Shown in pieces: positions 24,649-29,073 of a stretch of 44,451 bases of DNA. The position numbers and the translations under genes were made by a program. The stretch's first letter is position 1. Each line of letters begins with the position of its first letter. The DNA lies in sequence record SRR2962707_642; one strand, 5' to 3'. The notes beneath the pieces are model-generated. The model made no database searches, was not told where the DNA came from, and was given only the letters and a program-made list of their open reading frames with translations.

Positions 24649-26130
24649 CTACTTAATCATGTCTTTGTAGGTTCCGCTTGACCAGACCTGGCACTTTATT
24701 TCGTTTCTCAACACCCGTGGTTTGAGCAACGATTTACCCATTAACACGCGCCCACATTCCTGAATTCCTTCAATGATGGAAGGATGTGGATGAATGAGTT
24801 CTGCAAGCTCTTTGATGCTTTTGTCCTGAGATATTAGCAAGGCCACAGCTTGTATGGCACTGGAAGCGTGCTCACCTACTACACGCATGCCAAGAATGTT
24901 CATATCCTCATCGTTAGTAACCAGAACCTTGATGAAGCCCTGGGTATTTCTCATTGCTGTTGCCCGTGGTATGGTTTCATAACTCAATGACACCACCTTA
25001 TAATCTAGCTCCGCTGCTTTGGCTTGAATTTCGTTCATTCCTACACCAGCCACTTCCGGATCAAGGAACATGATGGTAGAAATATTTTTATAAATCAATG
25101 GCTGCTCAGGTTTACCGAAAATACGCTCCATGGCATATCTTCCTTCCAACTCGCCCACATTTACCAGCGAAATATCAGCCGTTATATCACCAACAGCGTA
25201 AATAGTAGGCACACTTGTGAGGGTCATGTCATCTTTAATGCCTCTCGCATCCACTTCAACTCCAAGGCTATCATCAAATAAGTTGTCGTATTGTGGTACC
25301 CGTCCTACCGAGACCAACCCTTTCTCTACACGGAAGCTCTCTTTCGCGCCATCGTTAAACTCCAACTCATACACTACTTCATTATCTTCAATCTTCATGC
25401 TTTTGAGCTGTGAATTTCGGTGGATCAGTACCCCTTTGGCTTCAAGGTTTTTTTCAATGACTGCAACCACATCTTCATCTTCGAATGGCAAGATCCGATC
25501 TCCCTTGTCAATCAAATGCACTTTGGTTTGACCAAAATTGGAAAAGATGGTTGCAAACTCGCACCCAATGACCCCAGCCCCTACTATTACAATAGACTTG
25601 GGAAATTTGGTAAGATTGCTAAGCCCATCACTGGTAAATACTATTTCTTCATCGATTGGTAAGTGATCCAGTTTCCTGGGAACACTTCCTGTAGCAAGGA
25701 CAATGTAATCAGCGCTGATGTTTTGAGAAGATCCATTATTGGTAATCTGTACCTCATTTGGACTGACCACCTTGGCTGTTCCTTTGATGTATTGGAAAAG
25801 ATCTTCTCCGTGACCAAGGTTTATATTGTCCATGTGGTGAGACAGCAAGCCAACACGTTGCTCCACCGCTTTGGCCACTTCGTGTTTTACTTTCTCAAAA
25901 CTGAAATTGGTCGCATCAAGGTTCAACGTCTTACCGTGTACATTGATCATTCTGGCTTCCCTGGAAATTTCCCACCAGGTTTTACTCCAAAGTGCTCCCT
26001 GATGAATTCCTGCTCCACCAAGAAGGTTTTTTTCAATGAGTGCAACACGTTTTCCGAAATCTATTGCGCGCATGGCGGCTGCATAGCCCGCAGGCCCTGC
26101 ACCGATCACGCAAACGTCAAATTTGTCCAT
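24649..26130 (-). CDS. Pyridine nucleotide-disulfide oxidoreductase class I fold (LpdA/SthA-like) lacking the redox cysteines
   Basis: GAGPAG, ATGS, GAGVIGCE, YAVGD and HPHPSIIE; the usual CxxxxC segment reads GGAGIHQGALWSK. Confidence 0.85.
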   Translation of the reverse strand: MDKFDVCVIGAGPAGYAAAMRAIDFGKRVALIEKNLLGGAGIHQGALWSKTWWEISREARMINVHGKTLNLDATNFSFEKVKHEVAKAVEQRVGLLSHHMDNINLGHGEDLFQYIKGTAKVVSPNEVQITNNGSSQNISADYIVLATGSVPRKLDHLPIDEEIVFTSDGLSNLTKFPKSIVIVGAGVIGCEFATIFSNFGQTKVHLIDKGDRILPFEDEDVVAVIEKNLEAKGVLIHRNSQLKSMKIEDNEVVYELEFNDGAKESFRVEKGLVSVGRVPQYDNLFDDSLGVEVDARGIKDDMTLTSVPTIYAVGDITADISLVNVGELEGRYAMERIFGKPEQPLIYKNISTIMFLDPEVAGVGMNEIQAKAAELDYKVVSLSYETIPRATAMRNTQGFIKVLVTNDEDMNILGMRVVGEHASSAIQAVALLISQDKSIKELAELIHPHPSIIEGIQECGRVLMGKSLLKPRVLRNEIKCQVWSSGTYKDMIK

Positions 26131-26204
26131 GTGACTAGGCGATTGATTGCTATAAAGATAAGAGATTGTCCTATATATGCCCTACCGGTGATGTAAGTTT
26201 CGGG

Positions 26205-26246
26205 GCAAAACAAAAAGGGCCGAAATTCATAAATGAATCTCAGCCC
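26205..26246 (-). terminator. Intrinsic terminator ending the candidate ncRNA
   Basis: GGGCUGAGAUUCA-UUUA-UGAAUUUCGGCCC followed by UUUUUGUUUU. Confidence 0.85.
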
Positions 26247-26445
26247 TCTTTAGTACTGCAACTGCCGTAGCAACTGCAACACTCCAAATTATCGTTCGGT
26301 TACCTAGCGATGCCTCTTGAGGTTGCCCTCCGAGCCTCATCTCATCAAACTTTCAAACTTCGTCGGCCTAAGCCAAACTAAATACCGACTTCCCTTTTCA
26401 AGCTTGGAGATCTTGCGATCTCGGCTTCCTATCTTTCGTTTGGTT
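26205..26445 (-). ncRNA. Candidate structured non-coding RNA (~240 nt), family not recognised
   Basis: Hairpins GAGAUC-GCAA-GAUCUC, GUCGGU...GCCGAC, GAGG-GCAA-CCUC and a 14-bp stem capped by cUACGg; own promoter and terminator; G-U pairs work only on the minus strand. Confidence 0.75.
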
Positions 26446-26448
26446 CAA

Positions 26449-26479
26449 CTAAAGTAGACTATAATTTTACAACTCCAAA
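26449..26479 (-). promoter_or_regulatory. Bacteroidetes primary-sigma promoter for the candidate ncRNA
   Basis: -33 TTTG (26476-26479), 19-nt spacer, -7 TACTTTAG (26449-26456; one mismatch to TAnnTTTG). Confidence 0.65.
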
Positions 26480-26495
26480 TTTTCTAACCATCTAG

Positions 26496-26562
26496 TTTTC
26501 AACAAGTTATACACCCAATAATACCCTGGTTATCCACAGGGTTATGCACATGTTTATCCACA
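26496..26562 (+). promoter_or_regulatory. Cluster of co-oriented DnaA boxes
   Basis: TTTTCAACA 26496, TTATACACC 26507, TTATCCACA 26530, TTATGCACA 26542, TTATCCACA 26554 (consensus TTWTNCACA). Confidence 0.8.
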
Positions 26563-26564
26563 TT

Positions 26565-27293
26565 CTAGGCTGTTGCTGCCTTAAGCTTCAATTTGAGTAG
26601 TGTTTTAATCTCAGGAATGGACTTGTAAAGCTGCTCATAGCTCTCCGTGATGAAATATTGCGTCTGGAATTGATCCTTTCTGTAAGGAGTTTCAAGCATA
26701 TGTGCTACACTAAATTCGTGCTTAGGAGGTTCTTCGCTTAAAGAAAACGCCGTTTCACCTGCACTGGAAAGAATTCCCGCCCCGTAGATCCTTAATCCTT
26801 CCGCTTCTTGAATCAACCCAAATTCGATGGTAAACCAGTATACTCTTGATAATAGCTCGATGGCGTATGGATTATCTACGTACTCCAAACCAATTTTACT
26901 TAATGCCTCAAGGAAGTCCACAAAATTCTGATTGGTCAAAAGAGGTACGTGAGCGAATACATCGTGAAACATGTCCGGCTCTTCCAGGTAGTCGAGCTCC
27001 TTCATCTTTCTGAGCCAGGTCGTCGCAGGAAACCGTTTGTTGGCCATTAGCTCGAAAAAGGTATAATCCGGAACAATCCCCGGTACAACTGCCAGCTGCC
27101 AACCTGTGGTTTCTTTTAGAATCTGATTCGTCTCTTTGAAATCCGGAATAATGCCAGTTTCAAAATTGGCGATCTTCAATCCCTCCATATAGGTTTTGGA
27201 AGCATGTGTTGGAAACTGCTTGATCTGACGGTCAAAAAGAATCTTCCAAACCTTAAAGTCTTCTTCCGTGTAATTATCGTAAATCTGCTTCAT
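26565..27293 (-). CDS. phhA: Phenylalanine 4-monooxygenase (pterin-dependent aromatic amino acid hydroxylase)
   Basis: DYLEEPDMFHDVFAHVPLL, YWFTIEFGL, IYGAGILSS and QTQYF. Confidence 0.93.
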   Translation of the reverse strand: MKQIYDNYTEEDFKVWKILFDRQIKQFPTHASKTYMEGLKIANFETGIIPDFKETNQILKETTGWQLAVVPGIVPDYTFFELMANKRFPATTWLRKMKELDYLEEPDMFHDVFAHVPLLTNQNFVDFLEALSKIGLEYVDNPYAIELLSRVYWFTIEFGLIQEAEGLRIYGAGILSSAGETAFSLSEEPPKHEFSVAHMLETPYRKDQFQTQYFITESYEQLYKSIPEIKTLLKLKLKAATA

Positions 27294-27296
27294 TTC

Positions 27297-28304
27297 TTAG
27301 TCCTCAGTTACAGCTCTTAGCTGTCTTAGTTTCTCAATTAATTTTTTACTGTCGGGAAAGTCCAATGTTTGCTGACCGTCCGAAAAGGCTTCTTCCGGTC
27401 GGCAATGTGTTTCGAAGATGACCCCATCAGCACCAGCTACTGTTGAAGCCATAGCCACTGCACTTACATGATCCCTGATCCCGATTCCATGCGAAGGATC
27501 AGCAATGACAGGGAGGTGTGTTTTTTCTTTCAAAATGGGAATAGCGTTAATATCAAATGTATTCCTGGAAGCCTTTTCATAGGTTCGGATGCCTCGCTCG
27601 CATAAGAGCAATCGTTCGTTTCCACCTGCAAAAACATATTCTGCACTGTATAGCAATTCATCAATGGTGCCTGAGATACCTCGTTTGATCATAACCGGCT
27701 TATCCACCTTGCCTAGCTCATCCAGTAGATTGAAGTTTTGCGTATTCCTTGCTCCCACCTGGTAGATATCTACATAATCGTACATCTCCTCAATCTGAGA
27801 AACCTGCATGACTTCCGTAACGATCTTGATCCCGTTTTCTCTTGCCAGCTTATACCACAGCTTTAATCCGTCAATACCAAGTCCCCTAAACGAATATGGC
27901 GAACTCCTGGGCTTGTAGACACCACCACGCATGATCTTTATATCATTGGCTTTAAGGAAATCAATGGTTTCGATGATGTTTTCCTCTCCTTCTATGCTGC
28001 ATGGTCCCGCCATCAACGCGAAATGCCCTCCACCGATTCTTACTTCATCTCCTAGATCGATTACGGTTTGGTTTACTTTCCATTTGGATGAGACCAATTT
28101 GTAATCATCGGATACCAGATGTATATCCTTGATGCCCTCCAGATGTCCGATTTTTCTGATATCGAATTGCTTCTTGCCAGTTCCAATCAGGTAATTACCG
28201 TATTGGGTTTTTACCCTTGTCGTCTTGTACTTGAGTGATTTGAGTTCGTCCTCTACCTTTTCAAGCAGAGCACCATTTACTCCATTTTCTAATTGAATAA
28301 TCAT
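27297..28304 (-). CDS. aroF: DAHP synthase type I-beta with N-terminal regulatory domain
   Basis: MAGPCSIE, GGVYKPRSSPYSFRGLG, QVGARN, CERGIRTYE, DPSHG and SDGQQ. Confidence 0.9.
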   Translation of the reverse strand: MIIQLENGVNGALLEKVEDELKSLKYKTTRVKTQYGNYLIGTGKKQFDIRKIGHLEGIKDIHLVSDDYKLVSSKWKVNQTVIDLGDEVRIGGGHFALMAGPCSIEGEENIIETIDFLKANDIKIMRGGVYKPRSSPYSFRGLGIDGLKLWYKLARENGIKIVTEVMQVSQIEEMYDYVDIYQVGARNTQNFNLLDELGKVDKPVMIKRGISGTIDELLYSAEYVFAGGNERLLLCERGIRTYEKASRNTFDINAIPILKEKTHLPVIADPSHGIGIRDHVSAVAMASTVAGADGVIFETHCRPEEAFSDGQQTLDFPDSKKLIEKLRQLRAVTED

Positions 28305-28305
28305 G

Positions 28306-29073
28306 CTATCCTTTTATGCTTTTGACAAATTCATGGATGGCTTCTCCCGAAGCATCCTTTTTCAACTGATTGATGAAGGCACTGCCGATAATTGCTCCAT
28401 TGGAATAATTACAAGCGGTTTCGAAACTTTTGCGATCTGAGATCCCAAACCCTATCAGCCTGGAATTATTCAAGTTCATCTCATTGATTCTATCGAAATA
28501 GACCACCTGATCACCTGCCAAACCAGACTTTGCCCCGGTAATACTCGATGAAGAAACCATGTATATAAAACCTTCTGACCCTTCATCTATTTCTCTAATT
28601 CTTTCCTCTGACGTATTGGGACTAATAAGAAAGATGTTGTGAATACCATGAGTGCTAAATAGCTCTTTGTAAGATTCTTTGAACACCTGCATCGGTAAAT
28701 CAGGAATTATTACCCCATCAATCCCTACCTCCTGGCATTTCGAACAAAATGCTTCTATCCCAAATTGAATGATCGGATTGACATAACCCATCAACAGCAC
28801 AGGTACCTTCACCTCTTTCCTCAGCTCTTTTAGCTCTTCAAATAAGAATTTCAAGTTCATCCCATTATCCAGTGCAATCGTTGAGCTCTCCTGGATGGTA
28901 GGGCCGTCAGCTACCGGATCAGAAAACGGAATGCCAATTTCAATCATATCTACTCCCGCCTGATCCAATTCCCTGGCAATCCGCAGGGTATCATTCAGTT
29001 TAGGATATCCAGCAGTGAAATAGACGTTCAGAACATCTGTCTTTTCACTAAAACATTGATCAATACGATTCAT
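28306..29073 (-). CDS. trpA: Tryptophan synthase alpha chain
   Basis: YFTAGYP, IEIGIPFSDPVADGPTIQ, GFGI and GAIIGSA. Confidence 0.97.
   Translation of the reverse strand: MNRIDQCFSEKTDVLNVYFTAGYPKLNDTLRIARELDQAGVDMIEIGIPFSDPVADGPTIQESSTIALDNGMNLKFLFEELKELRKEVKVPVLLMGYVNPIIQFGIEAFCSKCQEVGIDGVIIPDLPMQVFKESYKELFSTHGIHNIFLISPNTSEERIREIDEGSEGFIYMVSSSSITGAKSGLAGDQVVYFDRINEMNLNNSRLIGFGISDRKSFETACNYSNGAIIGSAFINQLKKDASGEAIHEFVKSIKG

Follow-up and report, generated by a model that had tools for sequence, protein, structure and literature searches.

A putative family of stand-alone structured RNAs in Cytophagales and some other Bacteroidia, with a phased array of DnaA-box-like sites upstream of its promoter

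Promoters regulated by DnaA are known for protein genes, among them dnaA, nrdAB and mioC in E. coli and dnaA and sda in B. subtilis, and in the case of B. subtilis sda a replication signal is relayed to another process. A second group of well-described systems comprises orphan structured bacterial noncoding RNAs (ncRNAs) that possess their own promoter and terminator, including the raiA motif RNA, OLE, ROOL and GOLLD. To our knowledge, bacterial RNAs with a complex fold that lack an assigned function are rare, and past cases have led to new biochemistry.

In this work we describe a locus that bears a resemblance to both groups, identified in a stretch of DNA of 44,451 nucleotides from sequence record SRR2962707_642 (hereafter the window). 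As in the DnaA-regulated promoters of protein genes, DnaA boxes, as judged by sequence, lie beside a core promoter; the locus differs from these in its product, which is a structured RNA, and in the length of the array, which consists of three to six phased and co-oriented boxes at positions that are fixed across an order. With raiA, OLE, ROOL and GOLLD it shares a separate gene, a multi-helix fold, conserved GNRA loops and junctions, and the absence of a constant neighbour. Unlike them it occurs in another phylum, has a DnaA-box promoter and gives no Rfam match to their models, and the RNA is smaller than OLE, ROOL or GOLLD. A further comparison is offered by 6S RNA and its relative 6S-Flavo (RF00013 and RF01685), which are likewise medium-sized, separately transcribed and paired at their ends; in contrast, the RNA described here has a branched core, and neither covariance model matches at the locus.

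Our best reading of the comparative sequence data is that the locus belongs to an undescribed family of stand-alone structured ncRNAs of 230-310 nt, distributed in Cytophagales and some other Bacteroidia. On the same data we regard it as reasonably likely that this is a new RNA family which not only carries its own promoter and terminator, but whose transcription is also set by the DnaA array.

An RNA gene with its own promoter and terminator

The RNA gene and the elements that delimit it are as follows.

26207-26447, minus strand: RNA gene of about 235-240 nt, with its predicted start at about 26444-26441 and its end where the U tract stops
26449-26479, minus strand: Bacteroidetes-type promoter, read directly off the sequence
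26207-26251, minus strand: intrinsic terminator hairpin and U tract, corresponding to helices 10-12 of the model-fitted alignment

The Bacteroidetes promoter consensus is TTTG / TAnnTTTG. A promoter of this kind had been proposed in the first-pass annotation of the window, and direct inspection of the minus strand bears it out, with a -33 TTTG at 26479-26476 and a -7 element, TACTTTAG, at 26456-26449, separated by a spacer of 19 nt. All 33 Ekhidna-type copies in the MAFFT alignment preserve the two elements and the distance between them, and an alignment of upstream regions shows that both are still recognisable in divergent family members. At the other end of the gene, the U tract of the terminator is conserved in every aligned copy; a generic sigma-70/terminator scanner did not call this terminator, the loop and stem of which fall outside the scanner's rules. 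No conserved open reading frame was found within the RNA gene; in 37 members the longest sense ORF measures between 10 and 58 aa.

In the window, the genes upstream of the RNA encode tryptophan synthase alpha, DAHP synthase and phenylalanine 4-monooxygenase, while the downstream gene (24649-26130) encodes a dihydrolipoyl-dehydrogenase-like flavoprotein. The three upstream genes (26565-29073, minus strand) form a tight co-oriented block that stops 2 nt ahead of the first DnaA box. No terminator is evident between this trpA-containing block and the RNA promoter, so transcripts of the block may continue into the RNA gene. The flavoprotein gene had been credited with a -7-like element of its own, and such an element is indeed present (TATCTTTA, 26154-26161, minus strand), but it is not accompanied by a TTTG at the expected upstream distance. 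The TTTG nearest to it sits inside the U tract of the RNA's terminator.

A weak hint that the RNA gene is expressed comes from one metatranscriptome (X1), which contained 5% of the sampled words and in which short contigs cover 26262-26397 (one with a single difference in 136) and 26368-26483, as well as the flanking genes. Such contigs cannot show strand, start, end or level. Furthermore, one of them reaches 39 nt beyond the predicted start on its upstream side, and the promoter region is crossed by a 6-kb contig that belongs to a relative, so that DNA carry-over or read-through is a possible source.

A search with the flavoprotein recovered 80 related loci, the closest of which is from Ekhidna (Cytophagales) at about 83% identity. 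In many of these 80 loci BLASTN and nhmmer, the tools that the first-pass annotation had suggested, found the RNA upstream of the flavoprotein gene, sometimes in two copies. A covariance model (R1), which scores 199.5 bits at the window RNA, yielded 34 strong matches that represent the window and 25 of the 80 related loci, with two tandem copies in eight loci. A family-level sample of 151 genomes yielded 25 in which R1 identified the RNA, among them some with diverged forms of 230-300 nt. A second model (R2), built from 26 diverse sequences, matched 32 of 151 genomes in an order-level sample at E<=1e-3; just 15 of these are near full length, at 38.9 bits or more, and the remaining matches are short, terminator-like and often present on both strands. 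Matches were obtained in 14 of 151 genomes at the level of the class and in three of 151 at the level of the phylum, these three being the centre genome and two near relatives. The family is therefore patchy, in that most of the sampled family and order genomes returned no match, and model sensitivity may explain part of this pattern. Comparative support for the family is strong, and it is present even in genomes of 1.5-1.7 Mb, which are among the credible order-level matches and carry at least two copies.

Paired copies, which lie 0.45-5 kb apart in many genomes, bracket a single unrelated gene, and each has its own box array. In one lineage (L098, L101 and L111) the bracketed ORF has an N-terminus that appears peroxiredoxin-like by eye, and in the 1.6-Mb genomes (L115-L119) it was read by eye as sialidase/BNR-like.

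The relationship of the RNA to its downstream gene bears directly on whether it acts in cis. The RNA precedes the flavoprotein gene by about 80 nt, in the same orientation, in the window and in 25 of the 80 related loci, an arrangement that favours a cis-acting leader or riboswitch of that gene. This linkage is not constant, however. In one Ekhidna genome (G002) the RNA lies about 190 kb from the flavoprotein gene; there it still follows the monooxygenase gene, and it faces convergent genes for an ECF sigma factor and its anti-sigma factor. In general, among the 38 of 40 examined family members for which simple ORF calling returned a downstream ORF of at least 90 aa, this ORF is convergent in 24 and co-oriented in 14. 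In addition, the terminator is a constitutive one, for which the alignments reveal no conserved alternative pairing. Outside Ekhidna, all-against-all clustering of flanking genes found neither of the window neighbours kept beside the RNA, and Pfam scans (20 of 52 flanking ORFs) returned unrelated functions with no common theme. The variable neighbours and the mostly convergent downstream ORFs thus support the earlier suggestion of a stand-alone ncRNA, and we find a leader of the flavoprotein gene scarcely credible.

At the gathering score, Rfam 15 gave no match in the whole 44-kb window and none among 15 homologous loci. When the threshold was relaxed to E<=10 for positions 26100-26600, six chance-level matches of 12-22 bits were obtained against cut-offs of 50-84, of which five are miRNA/ctRNA-like and fall at the terminator and one, SCARNA7, falls upstream. 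The novelty put forward in the first-pass annotation thus stands, and its view that the RNA is not recognisable as a tRNA, tmRNA, SRP RNA, RNase P RNA, 6S RNA or common riboswitch agrees with the absence of any Rfam match at the locus.

Several of these RNAs were also sought elsewhere in five carrier genomes. RNase P RNA (RF00010) and tmRNA (RF00023) score over their cut-offs at other positions in all five. SRP RNA, which has no match at the locus, was detected elsewhere (RF00169) in two of the five, over the cut-off only in G139, and went undetected in three Ekhidna genomes in which 150 of the candidates were scored. For 6S and 6S-Flavo there is again no model match at the locus, where the fold is a closed multi-branch junction and not a rod with a central bubble. 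Canonical 6S RNA (RF00013) was found in none of the five carriers, and 6S-Flavo (RF01685) was found in two of them, elsewhere and only below threshold (G002:C1:2167669-2167779, L113, 49 bits; G001:C11:394959-395070, L114, 34 bits; cut-off 85). These two sub-threshold matches may represent the diverged 6S-type RNA of Ekhidna.

Full-text literature searches found no description of a Cytophagales structured RNA, and a term search of a 50-genome ncRNA survey (PMC11109978) gave no occurrence of DnaA, Bacteroidetes or Cytophaga. Overall, we are highly confident that the family is real, that its members are stand-alone structured ncRNAs and that Rfam 15 does not contain it.

A branched fold maintained by compensatory changes

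The minus strand of the RNA gene has a minimum free energy of -89.6 kcal/mol, compared with -64.4 +/- 4.4 for 200 dinucleotide shuffles, none of which is as good (z -5.73); the plus strand gives a z of -2.97. The elements of the fold are the following.

26284-26443, minus strand: closed multi-helix core, in which P1 encloses P2, P3, P4/P4a, P5 and P6
26443-26439 with 26288-26284, minus strand: P1, the closing helix CCAAA/UUUGG
26407-26422, minus strand: P3, hairpin GAGAUC[GCAA]GAUCUC (helix 4), with both-side changes in five of five pairs and 97.9% of cells paired
26362-26389, minus strand: P5, hairpin GUCGGU...GCCGAC (helix 7), with both-side changes in seven of seven pairs
26309-26343, minus strand: P6, long irregular hairpin with a GAGG[GCAA]CCUC cap, the GCAA loop at 26326-26323
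26252-26283, minus strand: P7, 14-bp hairpin with a UACG loop (helix 9), with both-side changes in 12 of 13 pairs
26433-26430 (GAUA), 26393-26390 (GGAA), 26361-26359 (GAA) and 26296-26290 (AAC..UA), minus strand: unpaired junction bases conserved at 90% or more in 26 diverse sequences

The helices listed in the first-pass annotation are present, and each of them shows compensatory changes in homologues. RNAalifold, applied to the MAFFT alignment of 33 copies, predicted 60 pairs, 26 of which carry such changes. In the model-fitted alignment of 30 diverse sequences, both-side changes were observed in 53 of 60 pairs and 93.2% of cells are paired; fitting an alignment to a model biases these pair counts towards that structure, although the margin over a control, in which the 3' partners were slid by one to three columns and paired cells fell to 34-54%, is large.

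A multibranch domain closed by pairing of CCAAA with UUUGG had been proposed, and this helix (P1) covaries in homologues. Of the 30 sequences of the model-fitted alignment, 15 have A-U and 14 have G-C at its fifth pair, and in other members the helix takes the form CCAAG/CUUGG or GCGGAU/AUUCGC. Other details of the original fold required revision. In the first hairpin, the GAGAUC[GCAA]GAUCUC portion holds, but the outer AAGC/GCUU extension is not conserved, its bases joining other helices in homologues. Similarly, the recurring GUUUG words, which had been placed in part in an unpaired linker, are instead the 3' strands of the conserved helices P4a, P4 and P1.

Among the terminal loops, the GGCAAC of the P6 cap is invariant in the 33 Ekhidna-type copies, and the stem that closes this loop covaries (helix 8); the lower stem segments of P6 derive from single-sequence folds only. 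The loop bases ACG of P7 are conserved at 90% or more in the 26 diverse sequences.

DnaA-box-like sites and the role they suggest

The most informative feature of the locus is one that the first-pass annotation lacked: an array of DnaA-box-like 9-mers situated just upstream of the interval that it had flagged. The array was seen on aligning the 90 nt upstream of each copy, where repeats resembling TGTGGATAA, the complement of the DnaA box TTATCCACA, became apparent; the consensus TTATCCACA is quoted in PMC3531139. Its components in the window are as follows.

26496-26562, minus strand: five co-oriented DnaA-box-like 9-mers, three exact and two matching at 7/9
26562-26554, minus strand: box TGTGGATAA
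26550-26542, minus strand: box TGTGCATAA
26538-26530, minus strand: box TGTGGATAA
26515-26507, minus strand: box GGTGTATAA
26504-26496, minus strand: box TGTTGAAAA

The boxes of the window follow one another at 11-12 bp, apart from a gap that contains a degenerate site, and their centres lie at about -57, -68, -91, -103 and -115 relative to the predicted start, the proximal box ending 16 bp upstream of the -33 element. Three of the four exact TGTGNATAA matches in the entire 44-kb window fall within 33 bp (26530-26562) at a 12-bp period, and the array is the largest same-orientation cluster of boxes in the window; five boxes were reached in one of 200 block shuffles.

This arrangement extends to the family, each promoter of which has such a phased, co-oriented array ahead of it. 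In the 170 nt upstream of 38 members, 9-mers that match TGTGGATAA at 7/9 or better number 124 in the forward orientation versus nine in the reverse. Among 37 members, box starts fall into sharp bins about 12 nt apart, with 32 at -60 to -55, 17 at -72 to -67, 12 at -84 to -79, 20 at -96 to -91 and 10 at -108 to -103, where the background rate of 0.00215 per position predicts 0.48 in each; no enrichment is seen for the reverse orientation. Many homologues have boxes that match at only 7/9, and because the boxes are degenerate there, the strict pattern TGTGNATAA-N2-5-TGTGNATAA was found at none of the RNA loci of five other genomes.

At the level of sequence, the locus has the appearance of a DnaA-regulated promoter, with TTATCCACA matches beside the core promoter at a conserved position, and the RNA promoter is probably controlled by DnaA through the phased array. 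Activation appears somewhat more likely than repression, since a gap of 16 bp is left between the boxes and the -33 element. That the function of the RNA is itself tied to replication or the cell cycle is plausible, and we propose it tentatively, as an idea that we hold somewhat short of belief.

A possible mechanism can be outlined from these features. The RNA would be made from its own -33/-7 promoter and ended by its own intrinsic terminator. It would fold into a multi-helix domain closed by 5 bp, with two GNRA-capped hairpins and purine-rich junction strands, followed by the UNCG hairpin and the terminator. With three to six co-oriented boxes presented on one helical face, a DnaA oligomer could form on the array and set the rate of RNA synthesis, in which case the level of the RNA would report the replication-initiation state of the cell. 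As to what the RNA does once made, the modelled structure inclines us towards a compactly folded RNA that would bind a protein and act in trans, and away from antisense pairing. Separately, a crude whole-molecule test of pairing with the 5' regions of dnaA gave duplex energies that were average or worse than those for neighbouring genes.

Should DnaA control this RNA, it would be the first ncRNA in a DnaA regulon as far as literature searches show, full-text searches having found no DnaA-controlled ncRNA. It would also offer a tractable entry to replication control in Bacteroidota, which is almost unexplored, and DnaA control can be tested directly in cultured carriers, among them Ekhidna lutea DSM 19307, in which the RNA is present in two copies. 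A broader proposition is a class of structured RNAs that spans phyla, is wired to DnaA via promoter-proximal box arrays and is represented in Bacteroidia by this RNA. We consider this doubtful, but if it were true, such RNAs would either feed back on initiation, for example by way of DnaA or origin opening, or broadcast replication status, and would amount to an undescribed RNA arm of bacterial cell-cycle control.

Competing readings and the replication origin

Three other readings of the array have to be weighed against DnaA control of an RNA promoter. The 9-mers might bind another regulator or act as an upstream promoter element, with the RNA performing a housekeeping or regulatory task, for example as a stand-in for 6S or Ms1 that binds RNA polymerase. 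In this RNA the 5' and 3' segments do pair and the promoter is strong and conserved, and with RF00013 not found in the five carriers and 6S-Flavo present below threshold in two of them, a 6S-like role may be vacant in some of these genomes. Against this, the fold is a branched junction in place of a rod with a central bubble, the 6S-Flavo-like matches sit elsewhere in the Ekhidna genomes, and the repeats match the universal DnaA box (exactly so in the window) in a co-oriented arrangement with the 11-12 bp period expected of cooperative DnaA arrays, all of which leads us to judge this reading unlikely. We think it less probable still, and indeed quite improbable, that the locus serves mainly to titrate or modulate DnaA in the manner of datA, DARS or the DnaA-box clusters of Bacillus, with transcription loading or clearing DnaA and the RNA being secondary. 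As a box cluster that is not an origin and lies far from the candidate origin described below, and one that outdoes any cluster within 9 kb of dnaA in five genomes, the array would suit such a role. However, the many compensatory changes that maintain the helices over a wide range of sequences indicate that the RNA product itself is under selection, and the fixed distance from boxes to promoter is that of promoter geometry.

The third reading is that the module forms part of the chromosomal replication origin and that the transcript helps to open or prime it. Tandem DnaA boxes followed by an AT-rich stretch resemble the layout of an origin, and no cluster of boxes lies beside dnaA in five genomes. 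Yet in many genomes the module occurs twice, at a separation of 0.45-5 kb and with a separate array for each copy, the flanking genes of the RNA differ between genera, and in the complete genome G446 no switch is seen over 200 kb on either side of the RNA, whereas a separate two-box locus does show a switch in gene orientation. We therefore hold an origin at the RNA to be very improbable. Our preference for promoter control over an oriC as the explanation of the array rests on this lack of an origin signature, on the tandem duplicates and on the fixed box-to-promoter geometry.

Details of the origin analysis are as follows. The RNA locus was rejected as oriC on the basis of 400 kb centred on the RNA (at 3,589,270) in G446, the one genome tested, where comparison of the 200 kb on each side gave plus-strand coding of 44% vs 50% and GC skew of 0.023 vs 0.038. 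Two perfect DnaA boxes 11 nt apart occur at exactly one site per genome in all five Ekhidna genomes (G446, G002, G450, G447 and G001). In G446 this two-box site (G446:C1:2514409-2514437, at about 9410-9520 of L198) lies 1.07 Mb from the RNA, and here plus-strand coding rises from 45% in the 200 kb to the left to 70% in those to the right, with GC skew going from 0.011 to 0.052. The site falls in an AT-rich intergenic region of about 400 nt that is conserved in G446, G002 (L199) and G450 (L200), has an inverted 8/9 box alongside and is flanked by ORFs of 156 aa and 597 aa. Samples of third-position GC skew in G446 suggested a turn from negative to positive near 2.2-2.7 Mb, but over the contiguous 400 kb tested it flips neither at the RNA nor at the two-box site. 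The sequence features point to the two-box site as the candidate oriC of Ekhidna, with a confidence that is moderate because third-position skew does not flip and the call draws only on gene orientation and, weakly, on total GC skew. In G002, GC skew from twenty 20-kb samples was too noisy for placing an origin.

The usual linkage of dnaA and oriC does not hold in these Cytophagales, where dnaA is distant from the candidate origin. In ten genomes that are complete or nearly so, 56 kb to 3.1 Mb separate the dnaA gene from the RNA, and in five genomes (L171-L174 and L176) the 9 kb on either side of dnaA contain no cluster of at least four boxes per 200 nt. The oriC of Cytophaga hutchinsonii has reportedly been confirmed experimentally, by Xu et al. 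in 2012. A literature search combining the DnaA-trio with Bacteroidetes found nothing relevant.

In three Ekhidna genomes the candidate origin has dnaA on one side and the RNA on the other, at distances of 1.06 and 1.07 Mb in G446, 1.12 and 1.10 Mb in G447, and 1.06 and 1.28 Mb in G450, respectively, while in G002 both lie on the same side, at 0.50 and 1.33 Mb; the near-equal distances may reflect shared synteny or chance. Finally, in a relative with a 7.1-Mb genome (G126), a 500-nt intergenic region (G126:C1:1677980-1678370, 8970-9370 of L175) contains at least six DnaA boxes in both orientations, and this box-rich region, remote from dnaA as well as from the RNA gene, may be the origin of that genome.
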